Source: Ptychodera flava (lineage: Eukaryota). Taken from it: 64,000 nucleotides of DNA. Both the position numbers and the translations under genes were made by a program. Location of the stretch: contig NW_027248355.1 of the NCBI RefSeq assembly GCF_041260155.1, positions 2,580,078 to 2,644,077 of the forward strand. The letters are read 5' to 3'. Under the pieces are notes generated by a model, which worked only from the letters and a program-made list of their open reading frames with translations, made no database searches and was not told the DNA's origin. Below, one piece after another: positions 17,485 through 63,607 of this stretch. The stretch's first letter is position 1. Each line of letters opens with the position of its first letter.

Positions 17485-17494
17485 TAGATAGATG

Positions 17495-17540
<46 letters not shown>

Positions 17541-17544
17541 CCGT

Positions 17545-19505: not shown

Positions 19506-19540
19506 CTACGGCTTTATGTTCGACATCATCTTGGCGAATT
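19506..19540 (-). CDS. Calmodulin-like protein gene 2, terminal exon (E)FAKMMSNIKP*
   Basis: Acceptor ..tttcttgtttactccccag| at 19541. The sequence is conserved with the gene 1 terminal exon, with stop TAG at 19506-19508. Confidence 0.55.
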
Positions 19541-20243: not shown

Positions 20244-20483
20244 CGTCGAATTTAACTTGTCCGTCTTTATCGATATCATACTTTTTGATCATTTCTTCGA
20301 CTTCTTCGTCCGTCATCTTCAGATCGAAACCAGCCAACACTTCACGCAACTCGGAGGCGGTGATGAAACCGTTTCCGTCTTTGTCGAATACATTGAAAGC
20401 TGCGAGGTACCCTTCGGTTTTACTGCCACTAAAGAATAGCGCTGCTCTGGTGAGATATTCCGGGAATTCGATGGTCCCACTGC
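20244..20483 (-). CDS. Calmodulin-like protein gene 2, exon with EF-hands 3-4 ([79 protein letters not shown])
   Basis: Acceptor ..ggcatag| at 20484 and donor GACG|GTATGG at 20243. 240 nt, as in gene 1. Confidence 0.65.
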
Positions 20484-24877: not shown

Positions 24878-27094
24878 CTAATAGGCCAACTGTAATTTGG
24901 GAGCATAGCCTTTCCTCCTCCTCTCATCTTTTAACCAAACGAATTCTCCCACCTTATAGTTATAAGTAGTCGCAAAACGATCGTACAGACGTTTCTGTTG
25001 GCGAGCAGTGACTTTCAATTGCTCTCTTGCATGTGCATGTGCTTGTTCTAATTTATCCCTTAAATTGGCCACATACTCAGAGCTAACCTCCCCTTCAGGT
25101 ATGTCTACAGGTACCAATGCCATATCCAATGGGTAGTGCAACTCTCTCCCTAACATCATCATGTTAGGAGTTTCTCCTGTAGATGGGTGTACACTACTGC
25201 GGTATGCAAAGGTGGCTAAACTGATGTTCTCGTCCCAGTCAGTTTGGTGTTGCAAGGGGTCCATATAAGCTCTAATATAGCGTACAACTGTGTGGTTAAA
25301 ACGCTCCACCTGCCCGTCACTCTGCAGGTGGCGTGGCGTGGTAAATGTCTTGTTAACCCCAAGCAAATCACACACTTCTTTGAATACATTGGAAACGAAG
25401 TTCCGGCCAAGGTCACTGTGACATTCGAGAGGCATACCAAACCGACTGAGAAAGTTGCCAAGCAACACCTTTGCAACCGTAGGAGCCTCCTCATTGGGAA
25501 TGGGGTAAGCTTCCATCCACTTGGTGAAGTAATCACCAAGTACCAAAATCTTTTTATTACCCCTGCTACTCTCGGGAAAGGGTCCCACTACATCAATTGC
25601 TATACGTTCAAGGGGTGCTCCGACAACGTAGGTCTTTAGTGGCGCCCTCCTTTTCCCTGTGATTAGTTTATTTTTAGCACATACATCACATTTTCGAATA
25701 TGACTCCGCACGTCCACAGACATCCCAAACCAAAAGTACTTGAGCCTGATTTTCGCGAGGGTTCGGCCAATACCTGCATGGCCTCCAAACTTGCTATCAT
25801 GAAATGTCTCTAACACAAGGGGTATGAAGGCCTTTGGCAAGATGATCTGCCACCTTACCATTCTTCCGTCAGCTGCTTCCCAAAGCTTATATAGTATTCC
25901 ATTATGTACCCTGAGTTGGGAGTATTGGGACCAATAGGTTTTGAGGGCTGGTGATCTATGGGAAATGTCCTCCCACGCTGGTCGAGTTTCACCACTCTCC
26001 ACCATCCTCATTATCAAACCTATATTTGAGTCTTCCAATTGTTGCTCCCTTAACTCAGCCATTGACCACAATACCTCATGCTCAATGTTTCTTTCGCTAT
26101 CTAAGCTAAGTTCCGCCTCCTGTTGCTCGGGCTGAGCAACAGGGGACTTCGTGGTTACCTTATGTACATCACACCTATGTGGATGGAGGCGTCCCTCCAT
26201 CCTAGGCCACCCATCAATCGAGTGATTGGGATTTTTCTCCACCTTGGAAGACTTTTTGCTGTTCTCAGCAATCTTGGCAGTAGAAGAGTCTTGCTGTGCT
26301 GTTTCGCATGACTCAAACTCTGACCGATTAGTTACCCTTGCGTTAATGTGTGTGTCTTTGTGATGCTCTCTACCACATTGCTTACAGTACTCGACTGGTA
26401 CACGACTCAGAGCATCTGCATTCAGATGCTTCTTACCAGGCCTATGTTCTATCTTAAATTTGTACTGACCTAAAAGTTCTATCCAGCGGGCTAATTGCCC
26501 CTCAGGGTTCTTAAACCGCAATAACCAGACCAACGAGGCATGATCTGTCCGAATTGTAAACTCTCTACCGAGCAAGTAGTGTCTAAAATATTTCACGTAT
26601 TCCACATCCGCTAACAGTTCTTTTCGTGTTACGCAATAATTTCTTTCGGTTTTACCTAGGACCTTGCTCGCATAACAGATGGGTCGTTCTACCCCCTCAT
26701 GCATTTGACTCAGTACAGCACCTATACCGACTTTGCTAGCATCCGTATCTAGGATGAAATCTCCTTCTGCAGACGGGAAGGCCAATACTGGCGAGGTTGT
26801 TAATATTTGCTTGAGTCGATCAAAAGCGTCTTGGCATTCAGATGACCAGATAAAATGAGCATTTTTCTTGGTCAGCTCATTGAGTGGTTTTGCTATAGAA
26901 GCAAAGTCTTTTATGAACCGTCTGTAGTAAGATGCCAATCCGTAAAAACTGCGCACCTCTGATACGGTGGTTGGCACCGGCCAGTTGCAAATAGATGCAA
27001 TTTTCTTGGGGTCAATGGAAACGCCCTCTTTTGAAAATCTGTGGCCCAAAAACTCGACCTGCTCGGCAAAAAGCACACATTTCTTTGCTTTCAA
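24878..27094 (-). CDS. pol segment: RT thumb, RNase H (..YASKVLGKTERNYCVTRKELLA..) and integrase (HHCC finger H..H..CDVCAKNK, then DDE core ..LGDYFTKW..SDLGRNF..QSDGQVER)
   Basis: 738-aa ORF with these motifs. The integrase C-terminus (GPYLVIGK..) continues in another frame, and a further 172-aa ORF lies at 24231-24749. Confidence 0.85.
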   Translation of the reverse strand: MKAKKCVLFAEQVEFLGHRFSKEGVSIDPKKIASICNWPVPTTVSEVRSFYGLASYYRRFIKDFASIAKPLNELTKKNAHFIWSSECQDAFDRLKQILTTSPVLAFPSAEGDFILDTDASKVGIGAVLSQMHEGVERPICYASKVLGKTERNYCVTRKELLADVEYVKYFRHYLLGREFTIRTDHASLVWLLRFKNPEGQLARWIELLGQYKFKIEHRPGKKHLNADALSRVPVEYCKQCGREHHKDTHINARVTNRSEFESCETAQQDSSTAKIAENSKKSSKVEKNPNHSIDGWPRMEGRLHPHRCDVHKVTTKSPVAQPEQQEAELSLDSERNIEHEVLWSMAELREQQLEDSNIGLIMRMVESGETRPAWEDISHRSPALKTYWSQYSQLRVHNGILYKLWEAADGRMVRWQIILPKAFIPLVLETFHDSKFGGHAGIGRTLAKIRLKYFWFGMSVDVRSHIRKCDVCAKNKLITGKRRAPLKTYVVGAPLERIAIDVVGPFPESSRGNKKILVLGDYFTKWMEAYPIPNEEAPTVAKVLLGNFLSRFGMPLECHSDLGRNFVSNVFKEVCDLLGVNKTFTTPRHLQSDGQVERFNHTVVRYIRAYMDPLQHQTDWDENISLATFAYRSSVHPSTGETPNMMMLGRELHYPLDMALVPVDIPEGEVSSEYVANLRDKLEQAHAHAREQLKVTARQQKRLYDRFATTYNYKVGEFVWLKDERRRKGYAPKLQLAY

Positions 27095-27300
27095 TTACAA
27101 CCCAGCTCCCTTCAGTTTATCAAACACCAACTGCAGTCGGTTTAGCTCTTCCTCAAATGAACTAGCAAAAGCAATCAAGTCATCCAGATACAATAAACAA
27201 ATTTCCCATTACAAATCGTAAAATACCTTCTCCATTAATTTTTGAAATGTGCCGATACCCATGGGCATAACTGTCCATTTCAGAAGTCTACCAGATGGCG

Positions 27301-28653
27301 TCATGATTGCCATTTCTTTCTGCTTGCCTCATCCAGAGCAACCTGATAAAAGCCGCTACAAAGGTCAAGGCAACTGAAAAAGCGTGCTCCACCCAGACTT
27401 TCCAAATTGTCTTGTATACGGGGCAAAGGATAAGCGTTTACAAGGGTTACTGCATTCAGACGACGGAAATCACAAACCAGACGAAATGAGGAATCTTTCT
27501 TAGCTACAAGTAGACATGGGCTGCTCCATGGGGAATCACTTTCTACCAACAGCCCCTTGTCAACAAATGTTTGTATCTGCTTATCAATCTCTGCTTTCTT
27601 CCAAAATGGAGCACGATATGGAAGTGATTTTATGGGTTTCTCAGTTGTCGTCGGGATATGATGTTCCACTACATGTGTCTTCCCCAAATCTGTCGGGTCT
27701 TTGCTGAAGACATCAGCATTCTTAACCAACAAATCAAATACTGACTGCCTTTGTTTATCTGAAGTTAAGTGTTGGACACTGCATTCATATAGATCCCTTT
27801 GATAGTCAGGCATTATGCCACTTTGGCCAGCAGTTATTTTATTGACTGACGGAGGTATTGTGTGCTCACTATGTTTACCCAAAGCAGGGGAGGACTCGAT
27901 ATCAAAATTAACAGTTTTGTCCATTCTTAACAAACCCAAACACTGTCCTTTTTTAACCTCGATGTCTTGGTTACTGAGATTTATAACCCGCACGGCGTGT
28001 AATTTACTTCCCACTTGACTGAGGGACCCTGCCCCCATTAGTCCTACTTTATTCAACTGCACTGGTGTCACCAAAGCTGTTATTTCCGAGAAGTTATTCT
28101 CGATATCATAACCTAACGTACCACCTGATTTTTCACTTTTACAAAACTGTCGACCCCCATACAAGTTGTAACCAAATTCAGCGACGCGAGGGGTTCTACT
28201 CATACGAGACATGATAATGGCTTCATGCCCGGCCGGAACAGATTCAGCCCAGTTTGCTTGCAACCGACAACAGAAAGGTTTTACATCTTCGTGAACAGTT
28301 TCCACAAGTTTGTTTCCTACCATTACTGTACCGTTTTGGAGGTCTAAACAACAATCAAATTCCCTTAAAAGATTCATACCCAGAATGCCCGCAGATCCAT
28401 TCAAAGATTCGGCTATTAAGATGGGTACGACACCTTGCCTGCCCCCTATTTCTGCTTTGATTAAAGCTTCACCCCATAGAGATACCCTGGACCCGTCCAC
28501 CTGTATTAAACATGTACCAGAATCTGTCACCTGAGGGCGTTCATTCTTTGGAATAAGTTCGAAAAAATCTTTAGATATTACGCTGTGTGTTGAACCAGTG
28601 TCGACAAGACACTTTTGTGTTACTCCCTGAAAAGTGACATCAACCAGTAACAT
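27301..28653 (-). CDS. pol segment: aspartic protease (LVDTGSTHSVIS) and the N-terminal part of RT (..FFSCLDLCSGFYQVALDE..)
   Basis: Both the DTGS motif and the RT motif of gypsy-type RTs are present. The frame breaks at ~27300, and the following ~200 nt (YLDD region) contain two in-frame TAA codons. Confidence 0.8.
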   Translation of the reverse strand: MLLVDVTFQGVTQKCLVDTGSTHSVISKDFFELIPKNERPQVTDSGTCLIQVDGSRVSLWGEALIKAEIGGRQGVVPILIAESLNGSAGILGMNLLREFDCCLDLQNGTVMVGNKLVETVHEDVKPFCCRLQANWAESVPAGHEAIIMSRMSRTPRVAEFGYNLYGGRQFCKSEKSGGTLGYDIENNFSEITALVTPVQLNKVGLMGAGSLSQVGSKLHAVRVINLSNQDIEVKKGQCLGLLRMDKTVNFDIESSPALGKHSEHTIPPSVNKITAGQSGIMPDYQRDLYECSVQHLTSDKQRQSVFDLLVKNADVFSKDPTDLGKTHVVEHHIPTTTEKPIKSLPYRAPFWKKAEIDKQIQTFVDKGLLVESDSPWSSPCLLVAKKDSSFRLVCDFRRLNAVTLVNAYPLPRIQDNLESLGGARFFSCLDLCSGFYQVALDEASRKKWQS

Positions 28654-28994
28654 GCTTATAGACTGTTCATTATTACCAAGATGTGAATGACCCAGTGCGA
28701 CTACAGGTTCGTGACCTTTGACTGGAGAACTGTCTCCAGGTTCAGACGAAAAATGCGTAGTATCAGCGGTGACAATTTCTGTTTGAGAAGAAGAGTTCTT
28801 TGTTACGGTATTAGTTTTCGGGAAAAGAGGTGTAGCACTGTATTGCTTGGGCTGTCGGCTTTTACCGACTTTCTTACTTTTACTTTCAGCAGGTACAGTG
28901 ATATGAGGTTTTATGACAGAATTAGAACTGTTCGTCGGTTTCTTACTAGCTCGATCTATTCCGGCCCTTTCTACAGTTTTACTGTGTGACTGTT

Positions 28995-30361
28995 TTATTC
29001 GGGTTGGAAGCCGGCCGGCTCTCCCAACCCTTTGGAGTTTGACGACTGCCCTTTCACATCAGACTGACTGGCTTTGTATTGAGGACATTGAACTTTTCGA
29101 TGTCCTTCAACTCCACAAATCCAGCATACAAGTTTCTTTCGGTTTCCCGATTTTGCTGACTGTGCAGCTTCTAACCGTTCCAAACGATCGAGTATTTGTA
29201 ATAACACGTCATCAGTAACTTTCGCTTGCACTTTACGTTCAACATCATCACCGACACTTGTGGCCCGAATGTTAGCAGACTTTCCTTTACCTTGACAAAA
29301 TTTCTGGAAACTTTCCTCGCATTGCGCTTCATGAACAACACTTTCTAGGGTAGCATCTTTTTTTCTACCCGCTTCACTTATTTTATGTTGAATAGCTACA
29401 TCTTTCACAGCCATCATCAAGCTATCAATACAGAGGCGATCCAGACATTCACCAGTAGCACTCGGATATGCTTTGATCATCATTTCTCTAATTTCCTGGG
29501 CCAAATCTTGTAATGACTGATCTTTCTTTCGCACAATAGTTTTGACCTGCAGACGGAAATCATATCATCTGCAAACCCACTAAGTGAGAACCGTTTTAGA
29601 AGCAACTTACATAAACCGTCATAGGTATCTATGTCTTGCCCACAATGAGCTGCAAATTGTAAAGCACGGCCCCTCAGTTTAGTCAACAACATGTTGTACC
29701 GTTGTTCTGAATTCCAATGATTGACTTTCGCACAAATATCAAAGTGAACCCGATAATTGGCAAAGTCTGATTCGCCAGTAAAGTTATCTACCTTGGCACT
29801 GTCTTTGCCAGCCGTAGGAAAGCTTTGCCCAGGAGAGCACATGTCTGGACTGTCGCGTGTAGCAACAATAGGAGTCATGTCCGCTCCCCTTGTCTGGCAA
29901 CTCTCGTTGCTACGCAATAAACTTCTCCCTCTACCGATAGGCAAATATTCTCTCCTTGCGTCTCTCACGCCAAGACGGTAATAAGGGCTAGCGAGGCTAG
30001 ATTTAGCGGGAGTAGCACCCACGTCTCCTGCTTCACCCTGACCGCACGGAGAAACACTTTTCTGAACCGTAGACGTGAAATTGCCGCTGCGATTAGTAGA
30101 CGCCGTGTTGAAACCACTGTCAACACTATGCATATCACCCCCAAGGGAGAATGGAATAGCCTGCTCTGTGTGCTGTACACGAGGCTTGATGACTACTCCA
30201 TCAGGTGACATAAGAGGCGACAAATCTTTGTCTCCCTCAGTCTTTCGTTCGGAACGAATATTAGTCAACTGAGTTTGATTCGCATTTGATGCCAGTAATT
30301 CCATTTTACCTGCGGGCTGACCGCGAGGAAATGAAATCTCACTGTCCACAAAACTTTCCAT
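28995..30361 (-). CDS. gag region in two overlapping frames (29480-30361 and 28995-29534), with a CCHC zinc knuckle CWICGVEGHRKVQC
   Basis: ORFs MESFVDSE... and ...CWICGVEGHRKVQCPQ overlap by 55 nt in different frames, which points to a frameshift. Confidence 0.7.
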
Positions 30362-30557
30362 CTCAGTAAAAGACTATTAAGAACACCTGCGAACACAGCT
30401 CTGAAAAGTACAACAATAGAACTATTGTTTGATCATAAAAAGTTGCAAACTTGATACCAACACGATATACAATGTATTATCGATTTTTCGAACACGAACA
30501 CGAGCAGAAATCAACGCCAATGACCCAATTTTATATCCCGCAAAAGCTGCCACCAGT

Positions 30558-39124: not shown

Positions 39125-42100
39125 GTGGTTTGGAGGTCTAAACTCTCATTGCAATCGGCTTGTTTTGTTGTTGCAATAATCTCGCCTTTAAGTGGGATAA
39201 GGTATCATTTCGTTACTCGGTCTGTAGCCAAGACAATACGTTATAACATGTCACTTGCAAGTTATCAAGAGTTGGTCACGAATTAGAATGCGCATCGGAG
39301 ACAGAATTAATCCTAAACTTTTACAATACTGTTTTGGTCTACCACTTGTGAAGAATCATTTTGACGCTCATGTATGGAGTCAATACAGTTTTCACGCTCG
39401 TATTAAATTTTGAAATTCAATAGTTGTTTTACCCTTCATTGCGAAAATATAGCATAGGAGAAAAACTGGCAACGTTTAGCTTCTCGGAAGGCTGTATCTT
39501 ATTGGTTGATCATAATTATTGGCAACAACTCAAGATTTTTGGAACTACTATTGTTCTCTACCAACTTGGCAGTAACACGATTCGGTGACGAGTTGATGAC
39601 CATTATGGTTAAAGGTACTCCATTTCGATGACTTAGTCACAACTTGTCATCTACGTGGATTTTCACATAACCCATAGAGGGCATCCGTCTGCAACCGTAT
39701 CCAGGGGTATATTGCACCATTGAGAGAAGGCATAACCTCTGAACAAGTAGTACGAGCTGCTGTTAAACAGGTTTGTGTAGTAGTGCAACTATCGACTCCC
39801 TTTCATCAATATTCAAGAAGTGGTATAGCCACAGGATGACGATATAAAACGTAATTGAGTACATATAGAAATAACGTTAAATGATACGATCTGAAAGGAG
39901 GGAGTTTTATTTATTTATTTATTCATTTTGGCCTACTTATTTATTATTTATTTTTGTTTATTTATTTATTTACAATGAAGGATTGCTTATTACAATCACA
40001 AGTCGGGTCAAATGACCCGATAAGGCTTTAATCGTCAAAGCGGTCCTCTAAACAATAAGAGAAATAATATAAAAGTAAATTGTACAAATTTGTATGATCT
40101 ATAAATATTACAACTGTGACGTTTACAATTACACTTAAGCGTCAATAACAGTTTTCAAATGGCTTTTAAAAGATTGAGATTAGGGCTACGTTTTATAATG
40201 TCCGGTAACGTTCTCTGCCAACTTGCAGTACGAAACTTCCAAAGACGCAAGTCCAATGCTAAGGCTGCACGCGTGTTATAATCACGAACATTTCTAAGTG
40301 GAAGTAGAGCTACGTTCATGGAACATTTGTCTGTTCAAAGGCAGGTAAAGTAAAGTATATCTTGCTTGACAGCTTGAAATTTGCTAGCACTTTCCTCAAT
40401 CAAAATTTCCAACCATTCTCTTTCAAGATCTAGAATAAAAAACCAGGGGTCATCGTACAAATTTTGGTACCGGAGAAAAAAACAACCAAATCTTTGCTGT
40501 ATTTGAAATTCAAAATGGCCGAAATTCCTGTGTTATCTGTCTTGGGGAAATAAAATTTATGAAATTCACAAAACTAAGTTAGTGAAAAGTTTATTCACTC
40601 CATCAAAATGAGTTAAATCCAGGTGGTAGACCAAAACAATATTGTAAAATCTTGAGTGTCAGAGTATCTGTTTTCGAGGAGCATTCAAACTTAAAAGGCC
40701 TGAGAGGCATCAGTACGACGTTCGCCTGCAAGCATGAATAAGGGAGCTAGGAGTACTGTCAGTCTTGAATATTTTCAAAGGCAGGGAGACAAAACTAGTA
40801 CAGGAAGACATTATGATCAATTGAACTCGTGTATCCTTTATTGTGCCACCAAAGCTTAAATTTACATAAAAATGCCAACATCGAATACTGAAGTAAAAAC
40901 GTTGAGAAAGTGAGTCTTTATTAGAAAAAAATTAACTTCTGAATTTTAACGTCTTTAACGACTCTCATGTAATTTCATTACCGTTCATGAGTATTTAAGC
41001 CTCCTTATACATACTGAATTCCTCTTCAAGTGATAATTCTATGTGATAAAGCGATGAAGTGTTTTATCAGATAGTTGTGTTTGCATACATAGTGTAGAGT
41101 GGTGTAAATTTGGTTACGTAAGCAGGTTGATATAAAATGTTATTAATATAAGATTTTATAAATGTTTATTAATATTTATACAAATGCTTAAAACACAACC
41201 AAACGAACGATCGCTTCTATATAAATATTCCATACACTGCCTCAGATCATACAACTTGTGATGAATGTCAAGACATATTTAACCCTGACTTATAAAAGAA
41301 GTGCATTGACAAAGACTTATTGACTTACTCTCTTAAAGGGATAAAGTTGTCTTTTTGCTGATTTTCATATCAAGAAAGCATGGAATACTTGCATTATGTC
41401 ACTGTTTACAAGATGACGGTAACACATAACTGCAAAAGTGTCTAAAATCAACCCGTTGCTGAATGTACAACGAATGATTTCGTTTATGAAATGTACACAA
41501 AATGGATTTTTCTTTTTACTATCCTACGAAAATTAAAAAAAATATTCTACACTGTTAGGGATAGCTGCTATCCTTACGTATATGAAAGGCACCGCTGCTT
41601 AAGATTCAATCAGAAAACCTCGCAAAGGTCCAAACTGTATGTAACAATGTATGTTTAGCCATGCATGGTGTACGCTTCGATTTTCGAACTTCATAGATGG
41701 AGCAGATCGGTGAGTTTTTAGCATAATGTTTAATATTGTTTAGCTGCAAGAGCAGTTAAGGTTGTTCAAAGTTACCAGTATTTCAACACGTTTCAGGAAG
41801 TAATACAACACAAATTACTTTTATAATCAAGCAAAATTTTCGAAACAAGTCATTGACAATGACATAGTCCCCCCCATTGTAATTGGGAATTTGTCACTGG
41901 AAGTGACTAAAAATGGAAGCCGATGTGATGCACATGAAACAAGGAATGCGGGTACTAAAGCCCTGTCTGAGACTGATGCCCTTACTGGATTGGATTGTAA
42001 ACAAGTAGTGGCATAGGGTTATGTCCTTTTACCAAGTTTGACAGAATTCGGTATGTCATGCCCTGGCTTTTCAAATGTCAAAATTCAAATTATATGCAAG

Positions 42101-46197: not shown

Positions 46198-46659
46198 AAA
46201 TGTACCTTTTGGCGGGAATGTAGTCCTGGGTTGTATCAGTCGCAATTTCCTCTTCGTAACAACGTCAGAAACCACTTTGTTGACACCGGGCGGAAGAATA
46301 TAGCGAGCTTGGAGACCAATGTCAGACAATCTCCTCTCGGCGCTGACGATTGACAGTCTTATGGCATTTGAGTACTGTAATTCCCAGTGATCAGAGGACA
46401 TCGGTCCGTCACATCGAATTCCAATTTCATACTTTGTACTCCACTCTTTAACTAGATCCGGGTGTTCTTCTGCAAAGTCGCCGTAGACAAACAAGGTCAA
46501 GGGCACATCAATGGGGTATGCTTCTATTGTAGTGATTAGGTTTCGCGCTCTTTTAGCATTCATTCCGACTTCTATGACAACTGATACGGTGGTTATATCA
46601 TCACCTCTCCCACAACTGTCCAGCGTCTGTCGTTCTGAACCTGGAGTGTCAGCTAGAAT
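46198..46659 (-). CDS. Candidate terminal coding exon; begins ILADTPGSERQ.. (a DTPG, GTPase G3-like motif) and continues ...LTLFVYGDFAEEHPDLVKEW...
   Basis: 153 codons open from the acceptor ttttaatag| at 46660 to the stop at 46195-46197. The DTPG motif followed ~45 aa later by hydrophobic-FxYGD resembles AIG1/GIMAP-type GTPase exons, but no P-loop exon was found upstream. Confidence 0.25.
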
Positions 46660-46933
46660 CTATTAAAACACAAAAGGCAGGGCGTAGGACTTAATCTACT
46701 GTAGATTAAAATGCAATAACTGTAAATTCTCAATGTATTACTTTAATGGGCAGCACTACCTTCATATTTTTCAAGAGTTGGAAACTGAGGTCTTATTATC
46801 GTTTTTGTACTATCTGACAGAGGTGTGTTTTTAATGGCTGCTTGTAATTTCCCTTAACTAGTGAGAGTAATGTAGCATTCCCATAACATGGCTGTCAATA
46901 GAAAGTTCGTAAAAGTTGTAAAGATATCCGTGT

Positions 46934-47009
<76 letters not shown>

Positions 47010-47359
47010 TATATAAAACACTGGTATTCATTCATTAATAATGCTCTGAAGTTTATCGTTGTCGGAAGCTGCTCTGTGGTAACGACGTGCTTATGGTGGC
47101 GCTGTTTACACAGCGGTTTGAATTTAATAATGACTGATGTTTTGAAAGTCGATGTGTCAGGACCTTACAGGCATGCACAACCACTGCCGCAGGTTGAATC
47201 ACTAAAGAAGGTTAGCCATGTTGATATGCAGCGCGGTTAGCAGGCCAACAAATGAAATACGATGAAATCCAACCAAATGGCAACATCTATTGAGATTAAT
47301 GCATATAATGCATGCATGTAATGCATACATAAATCTCTAAATCTGCATTCATTATTTAA

Positions 47360-47500
47360 GCAATAAAGCACACCCAGCGATGGTATACCACGAGATTTTG
47401 ACCAGTTCACGACATATATGCACGAGCGATAGCGATTGCATATATGAAGTGAACTGGTCAAAATCGAGTGGTATACCGTCGCTGGGTGTGATTTATTGCT
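47360..47500. repeat. Long, near-perfect nested palindrome (foldback): ~55-bp arms (gcaataaagcacacccagcgatggtataccacgagattttgaccagttcac / gtgaactggtcaaaatcgagtggtataccgtcgctgggtgtgatttattgc) around a 38-bp loop that is itself palindromic (catatatgca...tgcatatatg)
   Basis: Read directly off both strands. Related ggtatacc / ccatggtatat..atataccatgg palindromes also occur at 47590-47620. Confidence 0.8.
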
Positions 47501-48011
47501 ATTATATCATAACAGTATATTGAAATTCTGGCGTGGAACGTCAAAAACGGACTTTTACTCAAGCTGAGAGCTCGCGCGCATGCCTGCCATGGTATATCGC
47601 CAATATACCATGGTTGTTATCGCGTCTCGACCAATCAGATCGCAGCATTACCGCCATCAATATACTGGTATGATATAATTTTCGATATAGGCTGGTATTG
47701 CCTAACACTGGCATAATAGTACAGCCAAACTGTTCGTATACTTTCAATTTGAGAACTATGTTGATATGATGCAATACTTCGAAAGGCAAGAACGTCAACT
47801 TCTTACTGTTGGTGAGTTAACTTCGTCAAAGTCTTCGAAAGTTTTTGTCTCTGCTGCCCACGTGATAATATTTGTTAGTTCCTTCTCTACTGCATCAGTG
47901 ATTCTTTTCTTTTCTTCTTCTGTTTCGCCTGTTGGTTGCTTCGGGTGATATTCCCCATAAAACCTTGAAGAAGACGAAGATGTGAACATAATAACATCAT
48001 CGAAAGAAATT

Positions 48012-48012
<1 letters not shown>

Positions 48013-48072
<60 letters not shown>

Positions 48073-48115
48073 AAGAAGTAGTAGATGTAGTAGGTGTTGT
48101 TGTTGTTGTTGTTGT

Positions 48116-48149
<34 letters not shown>

Positions 48150-48157
48150 AGTAACAA
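48013..48157. repeat. (GTA)n followed by (GTT)n microsatellites
   Basis: Visible runs; they are the source of the poly-V, poly-T and poly-Q ORFs in the track. Confidence 0.95.
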
Positions 48158-50836
48158 CCAGTCAATATAAATGACACAGTCTCCACTTGTAATTTATGTG
48201 AGTTGATCCAATGTCATTGAATAGAAGTCACAATAATGCACAAAGTACAAAGTGCGATATAAAAGAACATATATATAGTCATAGTTATACGCCATAGCAC
48301 CTTGTCTTTGAGTCAAGTTTAAATGAAATTTGTCGTGCTAAGTCTGAGTTATGGCTTCAGCCTAAAAAATTAAAACGAAGTGTTCTTCAGGCAGCTATAT
48401 TGGATAATATCACATGAAACAATTGACATGCATTTGTACTTCATGGTATCACGCCCTTATGCCAAGTCAAAATGACCGCAAGACAAGATGGCCATATTTG
48501 ATCACATCGAAAACCAACTTGATGTGCATAGGGTATGTCTTCGAATAAGGGTAGAGTAAAAATCGAGATCTGGAACATTAAGACACTGCCATATTGTAAA
48601 AAAGATGTAAAGTAATGCTAACAACCGACAACTTGTGTCTGTTAAGTTATTGAAAGCATAAGTATCGAGACTGATAACTCAGCTTGCATTTCCAAACTTA
48701 CAAGCGTAAGATATGATCTGTCTTCACATGTCTGGGCACTGCTTGAGACCGATAGAAATTAAGAAAAGATTGGATCATGGCATGCATACTCGATTGTATC
48801 AAGAAACGTGCAGATGTATGTCACAGTACTATGTTCTAATGCGGAGTTTGAATGAAATCGGTCCCAGAAATTGCCTTGGAACAGCAATATGGCCGCCAGA
48901 TTGCCATTTTGAGTTGTATCGCGAGATAGATTGCCGTGCGCCTGACTACGTCCTTTTGCCAAGTTTGATTGAAATCGGTCAAGTAATGTCAGAATACTGA
49001 CTCCATACTTAATTATACACAATATATATTTTCGGCAACAAAGCCAGTGTGACGACCACGTCATGAAATCCTTGTATTTTCACTGATGGGAACAAACAAG
49101 TTAAATGATAAAAGCCTTACCAGTTCTCTGAATTATACTGTGTATTATCACTTCATCTAAGTTTCAAATTTTGGAATTTTCTATATCAAGATGAAAAGTC
49201 ATATAGATGAAGGATTGTTTTATGGCCTATAATGAATTTACCCACATTTCTTCTATTGCTGTTTGCTGAAAACATACACCTGTTAAATATGCTATCATTT
49301 GTTTGTTTAGTCCATGCTATTTTGCTTTAAAAAATCTAAGTTGCACAATTACGATCAACCGATATTGCACATGAATATGAAAGATTCTGATGATGCTACA
49401 CTACATTGGTAATATCTTGACACGTTGCAATTGGTGAACACAATATTCAAATAAATATCTCGAACGTCCATAAGACAAAGTAGCATATATTAACACGTGT
49501 TGTAACGGAAAAATGAATCAACTGCCATGTGTCCGGTGCAGGGATTGGTTAAAACAGGTCAAAACCGGTTCAAACCAGTCAGCTTTTCAAGGAGTATCAA
49601 AACGTAGGATTTTCCTTTTACTATACGTTGTAAATGAAAACACGTACAGTGGACGAAGATTTTTGTGAAGCATGAGCTAAAATGACTCCGCTAAGACAAT
49701 ATTCCTGACCTTGAAGGTATTACCAAGGTATTATCGACCAAAATGTTTGCACTGACTCGTCGGAAAGGCAACCGGAAAATGCACAGAAAGTTACAAATTC
49801 TGCCTAATCATAATTTAAACAGGCCAATATCCTGGACCTAACTCATATCTACAAAGTTTTAGATTATTAGCATTCACAGCATCATTATCGAATCCAAATA
49901 AACCTGAAAAGAAAAATTATTAGCTTTAAAAAACAATGTTACTGCATAAAAGCGTTGCAGTATCCACAATTAGTCAACAAATATCATTATTTTTAGTGTC
50001 ATGCCATGTACATTTGACATATCTTACAAAGTTTCATCAAATAACTACATTTAATCACAGAGAAACATAGACAGAGTCGCAACGGGTATTGTTTAAGGCG
50101 TTGTTTAAGCGGTTACGTAACCCATCCATGTTCGCCTCGCCTCAGGTTGCTCTCGCCTCTCTTTTCCGAAGAGTGCCGACCATGTATCCTTCGGTAATTT
50201 TCGGATTTTCGCATATTGTTAAGCGAAAGTATGTTCGGCAAAGTTTGTGTTGTTGTTGTCGTGTGGTGCTGAGCGGAATTGACGTGCATGCGAAAAAGGG
50301 AGTGTTTTGAGCTTCAGGAAAGTGAGTTTTACCGTTTTAAAAATTCCTCTCATATTTTTATGAATATATAATGAGTGCGCTTGAACCAAATTTGAAAGTC
50401 TTTTATCGATACTGTCTGGTTTTACTCAATGGTTTACGGTCAGTCATAACGTGTTTTACACGTGCGTCAAGGAAGGACATGTATATGAAACTGCTGACGT
50501 GTTATGTTTTGATTGGCGTGAAGCAGTGTTTCTGGCCTGAGAGCTCACAAAGTAACTATGGTTGCTACGCGACTGGCAGTACGATGCCATTTCGTCGTAT
50601 TTTTCGCATAATCTCGTGTAATTATCAACCACAAACAAAGTCTCCAAAAAGTTTAACACCTTTGAAGCTCATTTTAATATATAAAGACAATAGTCTACCG
50701 AGACGACCATGGAACAAAAGGCATGCAGCGTTTCTAGTCTGTCTATACTATTTGTCTGTGATTTAATCAGCTAAAACCAAGAAAGCAAATTTTGCTAGAA
50801 ATCTGGAGTACCGTTGAAATGGCAATGTTTGCTGTA

Positions 50837-50887
<51 letters not shown>

Positions 50888-50957
50888 GTTTGAAAAGTAT
50901 GGGGAAAGGGACCGGCTAGAGCGAGGCAAAAGATACTGCCAATTGATACTGCAATAC

Positions 50958-51259
50958 TTACTTGTCAATCCATTCAAATGTACCATCTTGTAACATTTTC
51001 CTCAAGATCCCATACTCTGCGCCCTCTACGTCCAATTTAAAGATGACATAGTCTTCTTTGTTGACATTTCGTTGTATCCACTGTGATAGGTCAACGGTAG
51101 GGATGACATCATGCCGAGACAATTTCCTCTTGCCGCCATCTTGTTTATCAACGCCTTCTTTTCTACTGACAAATAGGCTTCCACCTCCCCACTGCATATC
51201 CTGTCCGTTGTTTACTTTCCCTGGAAACCACACTCCCTCGTTAAAAGCAGTCATATTAC
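50958..51259 (-). CDS. FkbM-family methyltransferase-domain gene, terminal exon (..NMTAFNEGVWFPGK...DYVIFKLDVEGAEYGILRKMLQDGTFEWIDK*)
   Basis: KLDVEGAEYGIL matches the FkbM-domain signature (iDvEGaEleVL). Acceptor tttatttcatggcag| at 51260, stop TAA at 50958-50960. Phase is consistent with exon 57183-57370. Confidence 0.55.
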
Positions 51260-51922
51260 CTGCCATGAAATAAACAGTAAATTCATTTAAAGGCACGAAG
51301 AGGTAATCTTTTACCAAAAGAAAACGTGTTGTTAGATTTACTTTAGTTTTCTATCACGAGATGAGCTAATGTGATTCTGAAGATGCTAGGGGTTATTGTC
51401 AATTTCAGAAAAGGGTGCGCCCTTCATACCAAATGTTCTTGCCTCGTAAACTTCGTATTTGTATGATAGGTGTGGATACACTTCCTTTATATTGTAATAC
51501 TTTATTTACTCAGTTTTTGATATGATGTGTAAGATGTCAATTTCTCTACAATATTGTATCCTAGATAGAAGGTTTAAATCTGACCAATCCTCTCTTTGGT
51601 CCTACTTGGCAAAAATCTTTAAAATTAATACAATATATGTTTTGTTTTCACTTCGAATGAAATTTCACTGATTTAGTAAGCCTTAAAAATTGTCATATGT
51701 GTAAGTAACAAGTACTAAAAGACGAAATTGAAACTATTTTATTTTTCTATATGCTCTTGGATTGCCGAAATCTAGTTGCGATTGAAATACAGGTCTTCAT
51801 GATTTCGAGAATTGGTAATAATCCTAGTGCCAACACCTCAGTATATCATATCTGTATCCTTGTAACAAAGTAAATAAGTCTCTGCACTCAGAATAGCGCT
51901 ACATTATAAAATTTAACTATAC

Positions 51923-53363
51923 TTAAAGCGCAGTGGTCGTCGCGCTGCGCATGCTCCTGAGGGGTCCCCCCCCCCCCCCCCCCCCCCCTGTTGTCAACAT
52001 ATCCAAGAATGCCGCACTATACGTTACGGGTTGATAATAATGTTTGCGATATTGCCGCTTGTTAAAATGGCGGCTGATCTGTCACAAGCATACCAACTTA
52101 CCAAATCTAGTAATTACACGCTGGATTGAGATCACATTTGATCATGATTTTCTTGAATCAGTTGAATGGGGCTCGGATGTATTGTTATCGCTAGAGCCAT
52201 AGAGCTAAACACTTACCTGTACGCGTGTACATGTATATGCAAACAGACTATCAATGACCGGGCTGTAGTCTACGACATCGCTAGCAAGAACGAGAGCTTT
52301 CATTTCAAGAGGCCCAACAGGAGTACAATTGACAAAAACGCAAGTTACAGAAATCTACAGCTGTCAGAGCAATGCCCGCGGCAGCAAAAAGCATATGTTC
52401 CGTGGTCTACATGAACGTCCGTGTCAAGAGAACCGGGTATACAGCGCGCTACACTCGGCTGTGGAGAATCCAACTCCATTACGAAGTTTACCCCGTTGGG
52501 GGATGCAAATGAGATTTCGAGCACAGGTATCAAGTCAAGCGAATGACCTTTCATAGTTCTTCTTGCTATGTGGGGGTTATCTCATTTGAAAGGGGATTCA
52601 GACCTACCCGGCAATCAGGAGGTACAACAACGAAGTTTCCGTAGCACCGGTAGGCCAACACCTGCTACACTAGCTAGCCGTTGGATCTCTGCCATGACCA
52701 TGCACAGGATCTCTCGCTCGTTTTGTCTATTGTTTCTTGTCATTTGACTATTTCTTGCCACGTATTACTAGAAGCAGCAAGAAATGGTGATCAACAGTGG
52801 GTCGTGGGCCAAGTCGTCGTGGGGCCAGTAGGTTGTGGGACAGGATTCCCCCGTGTACGTCAACGCGGTGACCGTCTCCCTTATCGAAGCAACAACATCT
52901 CCCGTGCCCTGCTCTGGCTTGCCGATCACGCTCTTGAGTGTATTTTTTGTGTTAGACGTTGTGCTTGTTGCTAGTCTACATATATATACAATGTTGATCA
53001 TTTTAGTGATGTATTTTTACTGTACTATACAGAGCATTGTGTACAACCAGCGTGACCGCGCGCGATCATACCCATTTGTTCACCGTGACTGCATGCACTA
53101 AACTCAGCGACATAGTGTGCCGAGTGTAGTGTCTCAATGTTCGTAGCCTTACATTAGTTTATAAATAGAAATACACCATAGAAGTTCGTTTCCAATCTTA
53201 ATATTTTACTATTGCATGATGTTGAGTCTTACATAGGCGTTAACAAAGTGTGGGACCGCTCCCATCTTACTCAGATTGAAGTTCAGAAGACTATGTTTAC
53301 AAAAATTCATGTTTATCAACAAAAAAATCGCGCACGCGCAGCGCGACGACCACTGCGCTTTAA
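51923..53363. mobile_element. Non-autonomous TIR element (MITE-like, 1.44 kb) with 32-bp terminal inverted repeats TTAAAGCGCAGTGGTCGTCGCGCTGCGC(A/G)TGC
   Basis: Left end 51923-51954 and right end 53332-53363 match in 31 of 32 bp as inverted repeats. There is no convincing internal ORF. A C21 homopolymer lies just inside the left TIR. The termini begin TTAA (possibly a piggyBac-style TTAA target duplication). Confidence 0.55.
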
Positions 53364-54476
53364 ATCGCCAATTGACCTTCAAGATTAATACAGGAATGAT
53401 GCTTTTGAAAATGTGGTTCGACATCCATGTGTTACACATAGCTGTGACGTACCAGTTCACTAAATAGTTTTTGTCATAAAAGGGTGAAGTTCAATGACAA
53501 GTATCGAAGTTTTGATTCGAGGCCAAAAGCACGCTAAGATTATAGGCTCTCTCACAGCCCCTCGTCGGCTTCGCCTTAGTCCATACTAGCGCCCTTAGCT
53601 GTGGGTCTACAGCTGTGGTGTTTTCAGACGGGATTCCTGTCTTTTACGGGCTGGTTTTGACTTTTACGATTTTAACCCCGCCACCACAGCTGTGGGATAT
53701 TGAATAGACTAGCGTCCATGTTCCGCCGCAAGCACCCTTTGCGCAAGTTTGTTCGACGATATTTCGAAAAATTTTCCATCCAAATTACAATTTGCCAACA
53801 CTCATCGACAGCTTGGTTATTAGGGACTCACCAAACCAGAAGTCCGCTCAAAATTCACCGAAATATCGCCTTTTTTCTAGGTTTGCCAGACATGACTACA
53901 CGGAGACCGCCATTTTGCTGGCGTAAAACTGCTGGTCGAGGATCCCTGCAGCACGTCACTACAGTGACGTAGGCGGTGACCTATAAGCATTTCCTGCAGG
54001 ATCTTCAGTAAATCTTCAATCGTGTAAACATAGTATGAATAAACGCAAGTCAACATCGTTTATTATAGCTCACTATGAATACCTATTATAAATTTCATAG
54101 CATTATTTCGGCAAATCGTTATTAACAGAATGCTTTTTGGATTGCATGTTTCGATAAGAAATGATCGAAATCGACACGACTTTAATGCACGCAGAGTTAT
54201 ATTCAAAGTACCTCCTCGAACTTCGTCAGTGGGGACTAATGTCAACGCATTATTTCGTCTCTAGACTTTAAATTTGGTTGATTTCGCTGGGACGTAGATA
54301 GCATAATTAACACCGGTGAAAATGCTAAGTAACCATTGATTTCATTGTTTAGCTTGCACATTTGTGAAATTTAATCCCATTAGACATGTGTACAGAAATC
54401 AGGCCAAGAACATCTGCGTATTAATCTGACAAATAAAGAGAAAGAATGAAAGCTTTGACAAAGAGGAGGAATCATG

Positions 54477-54850
54477 GGCCAGTGGCTAGAGCAGTGGACT
54501 CACGTTCAAAGGATGGCGAGTTCGAGCTCCGGCATGGCTGTGGTGTTGTATCCTTGAGCAAGGCACTTTATTCCTCATTGTTTCTCCCCACCCAGGAGTG
54601 ATGGGTACCTGGTAGGACAGTGGTTGTAATGTGTGCGTTTAGCTCTGCTGCGCTTATTGGCTGCACATGTGAGCTGTTGTTTGCTCCCCAGGGAGTTGAG
54701 TGGTATCATATTAGGTCCAGTGACCAGGGGTAATAATAATCATAGGCGTAGGAACCGGGGGGGGGGGGGGGGGGCGGCCGCCCCCCCAATGCTGAAGTTG
54801 GGGGGGGGGCAAAGGTATACTTTTGCCCCCCCCCCCCCCCCCAACTTTTA
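54477..54850 (+). mobile_element. tRNA-derived SINE-like element (tRNA-like head with A/B box-like sequences) followed by a conserved body and G/C homopolymer tail structures
   Basis: GGGCCAGTGGCTAGAGCAGTGG...GGCGAGTTCGAGCTCC resembles a tRNA 5' half with pol III A and B boxes. An inverted partial copy of the tail region (..cctacgcc..ggggggcaaaggtaacc) lies at 56925-57000. Confidence 0.45.
54757..54850. repeat. Two perfect homopolymer hairpins: G19-CGGCCG-C7 and G10-caaaggtatacttttg-C16
   Basis: Read directly. Similar C-runs occur at 51968-51990 (C21) and 56946-56957. Confidence 0.9.
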
Positions 54851-57182
54851 CAAATACACATTGACTACGGCTAGCTGTCCCAACTATTGCTGATGTAGGG
54901 AGTTAAACAACTGGAGTTAAGGCGCCGTAAAATAAATTCTTTGTTTGCCGTCCGCGTGCGGGTAGGTTTTTGGACGAAATCTGAAAAACAAACACAGATC
55001 GTATGATCGAAAATACGGCGGGATGTGCTCTCCTTTGTTCGCGATGTCGCAGTAATTTACTTTAATGTCGCAAAAACGCAAATGTCGTACGATCGTTTCC
55101 ATACAAATCAGATTACCTATCTTAAAGGGGTACATCAACCGCTGTACGTAAAGTGTACATGTGCACCTCCTGTTGTAGTGGACTGCAGTGTACCGTAAGT
55201 GAAGATCAATCGACCGTTTCACAAGTTGATATCTCCCTCAAAGTTTTCAAATCGGCGGAAGTGCGTAAAATCTTTTTGGTCTCCGGCTCAGACTACAACT
55301 GAGCTGCAACAACGACCGCGCATGAAAAGATTTGTCCGAATTTCAGGCAGCGGTGTCTGAAGTCGCGCGTGCAGCTATATTTAGTAACAAACCTGACATC
55401 GCGATCAGCGCTATTGGAATTCGGCTAAAAAATAGTTGATACACAAAATTCAGAATAAATAGCCTTTAAAGTTACAGCTAATGGAGCATTTAACTCAACA
55501 GAAACAGTGATCAGGACTAGTATTTATTTGACACTTAAAAAGGAGGATTTGTACTCGAGGCTGTTATGATTTGTTCAGCTACCCACTCTTCTTACTGTAA
55601 AAATTGTAATTGTATGGAAGAGATAGTAGTTTCACCTTTTACCAAGATGTTTAACATTTGTTTTCTGAGTGACAACTATACATACTTTGTTATACTCAGT
55701 AAATTTTGCAGTTTTATATTTGGAATTTTCAGGTTTTGCAAGAACACCTTTTTGTTATAAGCTTAGCCCAACATGTTGAAATACATAGTGTACATTTGTC
55801 AAAACAGCTGTTACTACTCGTTTTTCTCCTATCATCTCATTACCTCATCTTGGCCTGCTTTTACTCATGGACTCGTCTTAGCTTGCTGAGAGGTGCTGGT
55901 AATCTTCGATTGACTACACGAGATGTTCAGAGTTCGTTGGTACTACATAGACTTTATTTCTCGGTAGACAAGCTTGACAGCTGCCATCGCCCAAGATACG
56001 CTTCTCCAATTGTCTGTCCTCCTGCCCTGTCTGTTGTATTTTTCTCTCTTGTCCTTTGTATTCCCTTTCCCGTATTATTTTAGAATGGGATTTTAAACGT
56101 TATGTTTAAGGCTTGGTTTTGATCATATGATAGATATGAATTAAAGATGGAAATATACGTCCAATCGTAAACATCAAATCAGATCTCGATCTTAAATGTA
56201 CATGTCATAATTAATATACAAATGTCACTTAGACACGTTGCAAAATTGAAGCCATTGCGTAAACGGTGAAGTTCTTATGTTCCTTCATTAGGTGTTGATT
56301 CAAATATATTTCGTTTTCTTCAAAACTTCGTAAACATCGTCGTAATACGTAATTTGCATCTTTTACATTTGTCGCAAATATGCTTTTTATTCATAATTGA
56401 GAACTTGTTATTTTTAATAGTTTTACTCTTGTCTATGACTACCTAGTGCATAAACCTCCGTCAGAGACAAACTATAGATCTGCGTAACACAACCAGTTGA
56501 TTACTATCACACTGTACATGTGGTACACTAGGGCCTATGTACTGGTATAGTGTTTATTGCCATTGTTTATTATGGAATTTTTGTTCAGACTCACAGTCAC
56601 CTAACTCTAAGTATGCTTGTTGTACTTATACAAAGTTAAAGTTTATGCGATTGATCTATGTTGTGTGTTTGTTTTGTATTTTTTTTTGCTCGCTGGCTGG
56701 TAGGTTTTTCAAAAATCCAAGGACGGCAAACAAAGAATTTTCTTTACACGGCCTAATACATAAAAACACAAATATTGAGACATTGCCGTATGTGAAAGTA
56801 GTAGTGCTTTAATTACATTTTTTACTATTAAGATTGATTTTGGCCTGTTTTAATTATTTTAATTTATTCGTGTATGATTTAATATTTTAATTTATTCATA
56901 TATGCAAATTTTAGATCGTAATTCATTCATCACCAGAATATAGGTTACCTTTGCCCCCCCCCCCAAGCGTGAATTGCTTCCTACGCCCCTGTAATAATTG
57001 TAAAGCGCCTTGATCGCATGTACTTGTGGACCCAATATTATTATTATTATTATTATTATAAAAGACAATTATGTCGTTTAATGGTGCTTTGTTCTTAGAA
57101 AACTGCATGCCAAGCAGCTCTGTCTTAACGTTCCGTAGATTACAATGTGTTGCAATTAACCAATCAACGAAAGAAGCCTTAC

Positions 57183-57370
57183 CGTCCTTGTCAGCAACAC
57201 CGACAGGGCAGTGGAGTGTGTGACCTTTGTCCTTATAATATGCAAAATATGGTCTCAGTCCTGCATCAATCTCAAATGAGTGAATGATATAATCTTTTGC
57301 ATCCGGGTATGTTTCCCTGAAAAGATTGACTGTTGAAGCTACGTTGGCACCGCAGTCTAGTAATATTTTC
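57183..57370 (-). CDS. FkbM-family methyltransferase-domain gene, middle exon (KILLDCGANVASTVNLFRETYPDAKDYIIHSFEIDAGLRPYFAYYKDKGHTLHCPVGVADKD-G)
   Basis: ILLDCGANVAS...HSFE(P) matches the FkbM N-terminal signature (v.iDvGAN.G...v.afEP). Donor GACG|GTAAGG at 57182. The acceptor is either caag| at 57371 (in phase with exon 1) or tattactag| at 57357. The upstream (TC)n tract serves as the polypyrimidine tract. Confidence 0.5.
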
Positions 57371-57384
57371 CTTGGTCTTCATCC

Positions 57385-58439: not shown

Positions 58440-59360
58440 CATGTACACACTATTTGTATTGATGATAGGTCTGGGTCATCTTCCATACCGACATGTATTG
58501 GTATTGAAGATAGGCATAGATCATCTTCAATACTGTGTTCTTAGTGTACTTGTATTGTGGATAGGCCTGGGTATCTTCCATAGTGTGTACATGTATTTGT
58601 ATTGTGGATAGGCCTGGGTTATCTTCCATAGTGTGTACATGTATTTGTATTGTGGATAGGCCTGGGTTATCTTCCATAGTGTGTACATGTATTTGTATTG
58701 TGGATAGGCCTGGGTTATCTTCCATAGTGTGTACATGTATTTGTATTGTGGATAGGCCTGGGTTATCTTCCATAGTGTGTACATGTATTTGTATTGTGGA
58801 TAGGCCTGGGTTATCTTCCATAGTGTGTACATGTATCTGTATTGTGGATAGGCCTGGGTTATCTTCCATAGGTGTACATGTATCTGTATTGTGGATAGGC
58901 CTGGGTTATCTTCCCTAGTGTGTACATGTATTTGTATTGTGGATAGGCCTGGGTCATCTTCCATAGTTTATACATATATTTGTATTGAGGATAGGCCTGG
59001 GTCATCTTCCATAGTTTATACATATATTTGTATTGAGGATAGGCCTGGGTCATCTTCCATAGTTTATACATATATTTGTATTGAGGATAGGCCTGGGTCA
59101 TCTTCCATAGTGTGTACATGTATTTGTATTGTGGATAGGCCTGGGTTATCTTCCATAGTGTGTACATGTATTTGTATTGTGGATAGGCAGGGGTTATCTT
59201 CCATAGTGTGTACATGTATTTGTATTGTGGATAGGCCTGGGTTATCTTCCATAGTGTGTACATGTATTTGTATTGTGGATAGGCCTGGGTTATCTTCCAT
59301 AGTGTGTACATGTATAGGTCATAATATTTGCATGAAGATAGGCCCGGAACGTCATACAGT
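58440..59360. repeat. 48-bp minisatellite, about 19 tandem copies (unit gtgtgtacatgtatttgtattgtggataggcctgggttatcttccata), with a variant block (tttatacatatatttgtattgaggataggcctgggtcatcttccatag) at 58960-59100
   Basis: Exact periodicity of 48 nt (= 16 codons) keeps the array open in all six frames, which produces the long repetitive ORFs 58450-59448 in the track. It lies inside the predicted first intron of the FkbM-domain gene. Confidence 0.9.
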
Positions 59361-61960: not shown

Positions 61961-62344
61961 AAGTGAATTTTTTTCTTTTTACACAAGTGAATTTTAATTT
62001 TCTAGAGTCGCACAACTCCTGTGAGGGCGCCTTTTCTCTTGTACTGACCAACTCTTTTTGGGAGGGCGCAGTTTCAGTTTTCAACGTGCAAACTTTCTTT
62101 TGAGATGACAAAATATATTTCGAGACAGCAAAATACTTTTTTCTTCGCGGCGGAAGTGAAGTTATCCCACAATTCCCATATAAGAGAACGTTGTAGGAGT
62201 ACACAAACTCAAACAAACAGATAAGATGTGTGCTGCACTGAGCAGGTTCCAGTTCACCGAGTGGAGGGATCGTATTACCTGGCATGTAAAGCGGAAAACC
62301 CGTCCCGTGACGAGACGATCGGGACCCCTTTTGCGGACCCCCAG

Positions 62345-63607
62345 TTTATGATTCATGGGCTATATGTGCGAGGGACAATAATGGGGTCACCATCTCATCA
62401 GCAGCTTTCATCATCCCACCATTCTATAAATTCTTCAGATTCTGATATGGATACTGATGACGGGGCGGTGTATTGTGACGACGAAGAGGGTTTGATACGA
62501 TCTTTTTTCTTTAGAGGATTCATGTATGACGAAATCCTGCTTTTCTTAAGGAAGTACCATAATATTCATATGAGTAAACGAACACTGAATCGTCGTATTA
62601 ACTTGTATGGTTTGAAAAGAAGACGCATAGAGTACGACATCGATACGGTTAGAGACAAAATTAAGGAAATGCTGGATGGGCCCGGGTGCATAGGCGGATA
62701 TCGGACAGTATGGCACAGTCTCAAAATGGAAGGTATGAGTGTACCAAGAATTGTTTTTCAACAATTATTGAAAGAATTGGACCCGGAGGGTAGTTCTTTG
62801 AGAAGAGCACATCGACTCAAGCAGAGGTTATACTTGAATCCTGGACCAAATTTTGCATGGCATGTTGACGGTTATGATAAACTGAAACCGTTTGGATTCC
62901 CCATACATGGAGCCATCGATGGATACAGTAGGAAGATATTGTGGCTTTATGTAACAAAGTCAAATAATCTCCCAGATAACATTGCATCATATTATCTTGA
63001 AGCAGTGAACAGATTTGATGGATGTCCCATTGAGCTAAACTCTGATCTTGGTACAGAGAATGGCACTATTGCTGCAATACAGGCATTTTTCAGGAATGAC
63101 AGTGATGCACATAGATATGTAGCATCTCAGCGGAATCAGAGAATTGAAGCTTGGTGGTCTTTCCTGAGAAAAAATCGCTCTACGTGGTGGATTAATTTCT
63201 TCAAGGATATTGAAGCACAAGGCATTTTTGATTCGACTAGTGTTTTGCAGAAGGAATGCCTGTGGTTTTGTTTTGCGTGTTTACTACAGAACGACCTTGA
63301 TCATGTTCGTGCACGTGAACATTGGAACACTCATTACATCAGGCAGTCAAGACACGATACAGTTCCAGGCAGACCAGACTCACTGTATTATCTCCCAGAA
63401 CTGCATGGAGGTGTAGACAACTTAATCCAGCCAGTTGCACAGGATGAAGTGAATTATGTATATCATGAGCTCATTGATAGAGACAGTGATAATGACTATC
63501 AACAATATTTCCAGTATGTTTTGCAAACATGTGCTATAAGCAAACCACACAACTGGAGAGATGCACTACAACTATATGAAGGGTTAATACAGGTGGCAGA
63601 AGAATAA
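62345..63607 (+). CDS. Intact intronless ORF encoding an N-terminal HTH plus DD35E (rve-type) integrase/transposase-like protein; candidate IS3EU/Ginger-type DNA-transposon transposase or a domesticated integrase gene
   Basis: The track ORF is 459 aa from 62228, and the first in-frame ATG is at 62345. The catalytic triad is in WHVDGYD (D), LNSDLGTENG (D) and, 35 aa later, QRNQRIEAWWSFL (E). This matches the retroviral-integrase/IS3 pattern (W.vD.t / hsDnG.ef / QGkvEr.n.tLK). The upstream ..GYRTVWHSLKMEGMSVPRIVFQQLLKELDPEG..R...Y is the typical IS3-type linker, and an HTH-like FMYDEILLFLRKYHNIHMSKRTLNRRINLYGL precedes it. No RT or LTRs are adjacent. The 3' flank runs off the window, so TIRs could not be assessed. 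Confidence 0.6.
   Translation, partial: FMIHGLYVRGTIMGSPSHQQLSSSHHSINSSDSDMDTDDGAVYCDDEEGLIRSFFFRGFMYDEILLFLRKYHNIHMSKRTLNRRINLYGLKRRRIEYDIDTVRDKIKEMLDGPGCIGGYRTVWHSLKMEGMSVPRIVFQQLLKELDPEGSSLRRAHRLKQRLYLNPGPNFAWHVDGYDKLKPFGFPIHGAIDGYSRKILWLYVTKSNNLPDNIASYYLEAVNRFDGCPIELNSDLGTENGTIAAIQAFFRNDSDAHRYVASQRNQRIEAWWSFLRKNRSTWWINFFKDIEAQGIFDSTSVLQKECLWFCFACLLQNDLDHVRAREHWNTHYIRQSRHDTVPGRPDSLYYLPELHGGVDNLIQPVAQDEVNYVYHELIDRDSDNDYQQYFQYVLQTCAISKPHNWRDALQLYEGLIQVAEE

Follow-up and report, generated by a model that had tools for sequence, protein, structure and literature searches.

In an intron of an FkbM-type methyltransferase gene of the acorn worm Ptychodera flava, we found a non-coding 1441-bp unit whose ends are inverted copies of each other and which has TTAA at both outer edges. 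With moderate confidence, we read it as one copy of a non-autonomous Kolobok-type class II (cut-and-paste) transposon that inserted at an intronic TTAA and duplicated that TTAA. We infer from this one copy both that the unit ever moved and that it belongs to the Kolobok superfamily, and for a non-autonomous element an assignment built on two terminal bases plus a target-site duplication (TSD) is weak. All coordinates refer to the window, which is the whole 64,000-nucleotide stretch of DNA that was analyzed. The features of the unit and of its host intron are collected in Table 1.

Inverted arms define a 1441-bp unit

The unit is delimited by two arms of 32 nt each (51923-51954 and 53332-53363), which are complementary at 31 of 32 positions (97%) and separated by a 1377-nt spacer. 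This agrees with the original prediction, which had also rightly described the termini as GC-rich. The sole mismatch is at arm position 29, where the left arm reads CATGC and the right arm, as its reverse complement, reads CGTGC; a difference of CA versus CG is the change that would be expected from CpG decay. The core 24-mer of the arms, AGCGCAGTGGTCGTCGCGCTGCGC, has only two sites in the 64-kb window with up to three mismatches permitted. There were no matches to it in 100 dinucleotide-preserving shuffles, and thus the inverted repeat is beyond chance.

The inverted match extends through TTAA on both sides and then ends, with C as the next base on the left and A on the right. Immediately outside the arms, there is no direct repeat of 2-10 bp on either side. 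Therefore, the TSD, if any, is TTAA itself or its central TA. When the unit is read with TTAA as the target, the element proper spans 51927-53359, its terminal inverted repeats (TIRs) are 28 bp long and match at 27 of 28 positions, and it starts with 5'-AG and ends with CT-3' (TTAA-AGCGCAGTGG...CCACTGCGCT-TTAA).

We also searched the whole window for pairs of TTAA sites whose inward-facing 14-mers form inverted repeats. The pair at 51923-53363 scored 14/14, and nearly all of the other pairs fell within the satellite/foldback region at 2.7-7.8 kb. At a looser threshold of at least 12/14, simulated sequence gave 0-2 hits per window. One larger enclosing candidate (TTAA 49549...56853) reached 12/14, a chance-level score, and was dropped on inspection of the sequence.

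Each arm holds its own hairpin with an 8-bp stem. In the left arm, 51928-51935 pairs with 51943-51950, and the DNA fold of this hairpin has an energy of -12.5 kcal/mol (z = -3.4 versus shuffles). The homopolymer inside the left TIR, previously given as C21, is C23.

Table 1. Features of the TTAA-flanked unit and its host intron, in window coordinates
Feature	Coordinates	Strand	Basis
Left TTAA, putative target-site duplication	51923..51926	.	inverted match ends here, outer bases unmatched
Left TIR, 28 bp AGCGCAGTGGTCGTCGCGCTGCGCATGC, 5'-AG terminus	51927..51954	+	inverted-repeat search, arm comparison
Self-complementary hairpin in left TIR, 8-bp stem, 7-nt loop; motif also in right TIR	51928..51950	.	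DNA fold
C23 homopolymer, 11 nt inside left TIR	51966..51988	+	sequence
Internal region, 1377 bp, unique in window, without coding or RNA-family signal	51955..53331	.	
Right TIR, 28 bp, reverse complement AGCGCAGTGGTCGTCGCGCTGCGCGTGC, ends ...CT-3' on + strand	53332..53359	-	inverted-repeat search
Right TTAA, putative target-site duplication	53360..53363	.	sequence
Host intron containing the element	51260..57182	-	GT at 57182-57181, AG at 51261-51260
Upstream exon, FkbM-type methyltransferase gene; 5' boundary predicted	57183..57376	-	homologue colinearity
Downstream exon, same methyltransferase gene, Pfam PF05050 Methyltransf_21; then donor GTAAGT	50962..51259	-	Pfam and homologues

The unit is non-coding

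The unit had been called non-coding from its letters and open reading frames, and this description stood up to searches of Pfam, protein, Rfam and tRNA models. Its longest stop-to-stop frame is 98 aa. Among its ten longest ORFs, Pfam returned two matches at E <= 1, both far below their cut-offs (16.2 versus 27 bits and 13.3 versus 23.2). When every open stretch of at least 45 aa from the six frames was joined into a 1069-aa query, it had no relatives at E <= 1e-3 among 5.8 billion proteins. No Rfam family was found in the unit at either the gathering threshold or E <= 1, ARAGORN called no tRNA in it, and a search for subterminal or extra transposase-binding repeats found none that were convincing. 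The G+C content of the whole unit is 46%, versus 37.5% in the 2 kb on its left.

The unit lies in an intron of a methyltransferase gene

The host gene runs on the minus strand. Its upstream exon encodes ...LLDCGANVASTV...VGVADKD and ends at 57183 with the donor GTAAGG. The downstream exon begins at 51259 after the acceptor CAG, encodes NMTAFNEGVWFPGK...KLDVEGAEYGILRKML...WIDK, and has a Pfam match to Methyltransf_21 (FkbM domain). The spliced junction, ...VGVADKDG/NMTAF..., is colinear with homologues from Saccoglossus and Branchiostoma. Based on these exon ends and the colinear spliced product, the intron is the 5.9-kb GT-AG interval 51260-57182, and the element is inside it. An insert at this site would be tolerated because it landed in an intron.

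The spliced product is 62% identical to the Saccoglossus kowalevskii homologue over 203 aa and 66% identical to that of Branchiostoma. In the protein search, its closest relatives were two Ptychodera flava proteins, with 90% and 79% identity over the covered parts, and a direct comparison with the closer of these gave 84% identity over all 143 aa. Over its whole extent in the window (46198-57376, minus strand), the gene has exons at about 57.2-57.4, 51.0-51.3, 47.8-48.2, and probably 46.2-46.7 kb, and it is closest to multi-copy Ptychodera flava proteins. Taken alone, these identities make an enteropneust hemichordate the most likely host.

TTAA flanks and terminal bases point to Kolobok

According to a 2026 review, the superfamilies with strict TTAA duplication in eukaryotes are piggyBac and Kolobok (PMC13565253). 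Kojima and Bao describe Kolobok termini as 5'-RR and YY-3', unlike those of piggyBac, and list hemichordates among the hosts (PMC9587614). The unit conforms to the 5'-RR...YY-3' rule, with AG at 51927-51928 and CT-3' at 53358-53359. TTAA together with 5'-AG...CT-3' ends is therefore a Kolobok signature and not a piggyBac one.

Because TTAA is palindromic, and because we have one copy and no empty site, a duplicated target and a TTAA that is part of the repeat look alike. The simplest reading of the sequence is that TTAA would be the duplicated target, with the 28-bp TIRs inside it. The original prediction had coupled this possibility to piggyBac-like behavior. Its first half is the best reading, as TTAA is the exact limit of the inverted match and is not bordered by any direct repeat; its second half fits poorly with TIRs that begin with A and are 28 bp long.

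All ten of the full-length Xenopus Kolobok copies begin with AG beside TTAA, and one subfamily begins with AGCGATTC...; the Xenopus T2-MITEs, which are regarded as non-autonomous Kolobok relatives, have TTAA followed by AGGRR (PMC6004289). Our unit shares the flanking TTAA with the T2-MITEs and with these Xenopus elements (XKol), it has the AG start found in all ten full-length XKol copies, and it also begins with AGCG, as does XKol subfamily A1. Like non-autonomous Kolobok elements it has no transposase, and its host phylum has reported Kolobok. On the other side, its terminus is AGCGC, versus the AGGRR of the T2-MITEs, its GC-rich 28-bp TIR with an internal hairpin is a further difference from Kolobok, and at 1.4 kb it is longer than insect Kolobok MITEs, which average about 386 bp (PMC5199201). 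The unit is also a single copy in the window, no Kolobok transposase or TIR-sharing autonomous partner was found, and the protein search gave no trace of the interior, all of which count against a mobile Kolobok copy. For non-autonomous elements, Repbase practice is to ask for equal TSD length and an alignment of terminal positions 1-11 to another element with at most one mismatch (PMC4455052).

Under the Kolobok reading, a Kolobok-type DDE transposase encoded elsewhere in the genome would act in trans on both 28-bp TIRs, excise the unit, and insert it into a TTAA, and the flanking TTAA pair would then arise as the staggered cut or gap is repaired. The TIR hairpins and the C23 tract would not be needed by this mechanism.

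Searches for other copies and for the empty site

A second copy was sought in the window with the arm 24-mer (up to three mismatches) and with BLASTN of the whole element, which found only the two arms and homopolymer matches. Insertion at TTAA predicts a precise empty site, ...CTATACTTAAATCGCC... (also given as AAATTTAACTATACTTAAATCGCCAATTGACC). BLASTN of both 1.5-kb flanks and of the joined empty-site query against the window gave self matches only and no paralogue.

We extended the search to contigs from metagenomes, viruses, and prokaryotic genomes, where neither the exact 22-mer AAGCGCAGTGGTCGTCGCGCTG nor the CpG-decay-tolerant 28-mer TTAAAGYRCAGTGGTYRTYRYRCTGYRC had any matches. Little can be read into these zero counts, or into the blank protein search with the concatenate, given that those collections lack the host genome. 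We judged it to be absent since the 738-aa pol fragment of this window has no relative above 48% identity in the protein collection and the Ptychodera flava homologues come without a contig record. The terminus string was likewise not found in the literature, nor in the KolobokP consensus supplement.

Alternative explanations

A non-mobile origin is unlikely in our judgment. In this case, about 32 bp would have been duplicated locally in inverted orientation, or the unit would be a structural hairpin palindrome, with TTAA at its ends by chance. Consistent with this, it is a single copy in every searched data set (the host genome being absent from them), no empty site was found, and further G/C-rich palindromes and imperfect inverted pairs occur in the host intron. 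The negative searches weigh little here for the reason given above, and a sharp 32-bp inverted copy 1.4 kb away that ends in TTAA and follows the RR/YY rule is unlike the usual replication-slippage duplications. A classical foldback element would have much longer arms.

The foldback element that had been offered as the alternative to a transposon finds no support: the inverted termini are able to pair as in foldbacks, but the long, internally repetitive arms that make up most of such an element are lacking, since only 2 x 32 of the 1441 nt are arms and these have no internal subrepeats.

We give only a small chance to a non-autonomous element of the Tc1/mariner or pogo type that duplicated TA, in which the outer T and A would be coincidental host bases and the TIR would start AAGCGCAGTGG. 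There is a TA at the center of each TTAA, and a CAGTGG motif lies 6 nt inside the unit's end; Tc1-like ends begin with CAGTG. This explanation requires that the left T and the right A match by coincidence, with a probability of roughly 0.1 at this base composition, and the inverted match is perfect across the entire TTAA. A start with AAGCG is atypical and is not known as a Tc1/mariner terminus. In favor of this explanation, no MITE superfamily of insects is more abundant than the elements that duplicate TA (PMC5199201).

Slightly less probable again is some other or undescribed TTAA-targeting cut-and-paste lineage that is not Kolobok proper, such as a new family or a Sola-type element, whose TSD would be 4 bp long. 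At its most specific, this would be an undescribed hemichordate lineage with hairpin-forming, GC-rich 28-bp ends and a transposase distinct from those of both canonical Kolobok and piggyBac, for which our expectation is equally low. The self-complementary, GC-rich TIR and the AGCGC start are unlike the Kolobok ends in the literature that we compared, and the unit has no linked transposase. Against this, piggyBac and Kolobok are the only superfamilies that the review cited above names for strict TTAA specificity (PMC13565253), and the unit follows the Kolobok RR/YY rule. A TSD consensus for Sola1-3 was not found in the literature searched.

Least probable among these is a piggyBac-type non-autonomous element whose TTAA was duplicated by a piggyBac transposase. 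The TTAA on both sides of the unit would suit one of the two strict-TTAA superfamilies (PMC13565253), and piggyBac is found in Saccoglossus according to a species list (PMC5381638). The unit resembles piggyBac elements and their derived MITEs, such as the coral CMITEs, in its TTAA flanks and short TIRs, and non-coding derivatives of piggyBac exist (PMC5381638, PMC2872659). It departs from them at its very ends. Among 157 piggyBac-like elements, C is highly conserved at the first position of the TIR, within the motif C[C/A/T][C/A/T]..., TIRs average 14+-2 bp, and removal of the terminal G at one (3') end abolishes excision (PMC5381638); CC[C/T]T is a hallmark of piggyBac-like TIRs (PMC2872659). 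Our unit has A in place of the conserved C, T beside TTAA at its other end, no CC[C/T]T motif, and a 28-bp TIR, which is twice the usual length and beyond the range of about 12-19 bp. Thus, of the two TTAA-specific superfamilies, the piggyBac-like behavior originally suggested is the less likely.

Other features of the window

The window comes from an animal genome; besides microsatellites and satellites, it carries EF-hand genes, an integrase-core ORF, and a Ty3/gypsy element with frameshifts. A second TTAA-ended structure, the 5,057-bp unit at 2758-7814, has TTAA at both outer ends and inverted arms that are at least 150 nt long and 98% identical. Its architecture is foldback-like because the arms are composed of a 351-bp tandem repeat, and it is a much better foldback candidate than the unit at 51923-53363. 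It begins with TG after TTAA, a start at odds with both the RR rule of Kolobok and the C rule of piggyBac.

Further inverted features occur in the host intron. An imperfect inverted pair at 54744-54842 and 56944-56990 (reverse complement) has GGCGTAGGAA and a long G run on both sides; together with a 26/30 inverted match, GTAAAATAAATTCTTTGTTTGCCGTCC, and the sites 54927-54956 and 56718-56747, it may be another degraded TIR element. At 54757-54842, a G18 run is followed by a near-perfect palindrome, G10-CAAAGGTA joined directly to TACTTTTG-C17, for which Rfam gave only far sub-threshold matches to miRNA hairpins; the minus strand has G(n)CAAAGGTA again at 56944-56964. In the same intron, about 54470-54720 resembles a tRNA-derived SINE by eye (GGGCCAGTGGCTAGAGCAGTGG...CCTTGAGCAAGGCACTT...); ARAGORN calls no tRNA there.

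Elsewhere in the window, three TIR-bounded units lack TTAA flanks: 524 bp at 16633-17156 with GGCACCAAG... ends, 1331 bp at 39319-40649 with TTTTACAATA... ends, and 142 bp at 47359-47500 with AGCAATAAAG... ends. One of these three may be the first TIR element to which the original prediction alludes by calling the present unit the second. The Ty3/gypsy element lies at about 24200-30400 on the minus strand and carries protease, RT, RNase H, integrase, and a zinc-knuckle gag across several frames; even the closest matches to its 738-aa pol fragment reach no more than 46-48% identity. A 459-aa open frame at 62228-63607 on the plus strand has an rva_4 integrase-core domain (E = 6e-28) and probably belongs to a further mobile element. 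An EF-hand (calmodulin-like) gene is present twice, at about 9000-13000 and 17000-21000 (approximate coordinates, from the order of the frames); the copies have two open frames each with near-identical peptides, and they look like a tandem gene duplication. A 48-bp satellite fills 58451-59315 with 18 copies at 93% identity.

Implications

The importance of this unit beyond annotation is little. It does illustrate that TTAA flanks by themselves are no marker of piggyBac and that the first base after TTAA, C versus the purines of RR, parts the two TTAA-specific superfamilies. If other copies exist, the unit would represent a Kolobok-type non-autonomous family in the acorn-worm genome, which would aid repeat masking and the annotation of introns.
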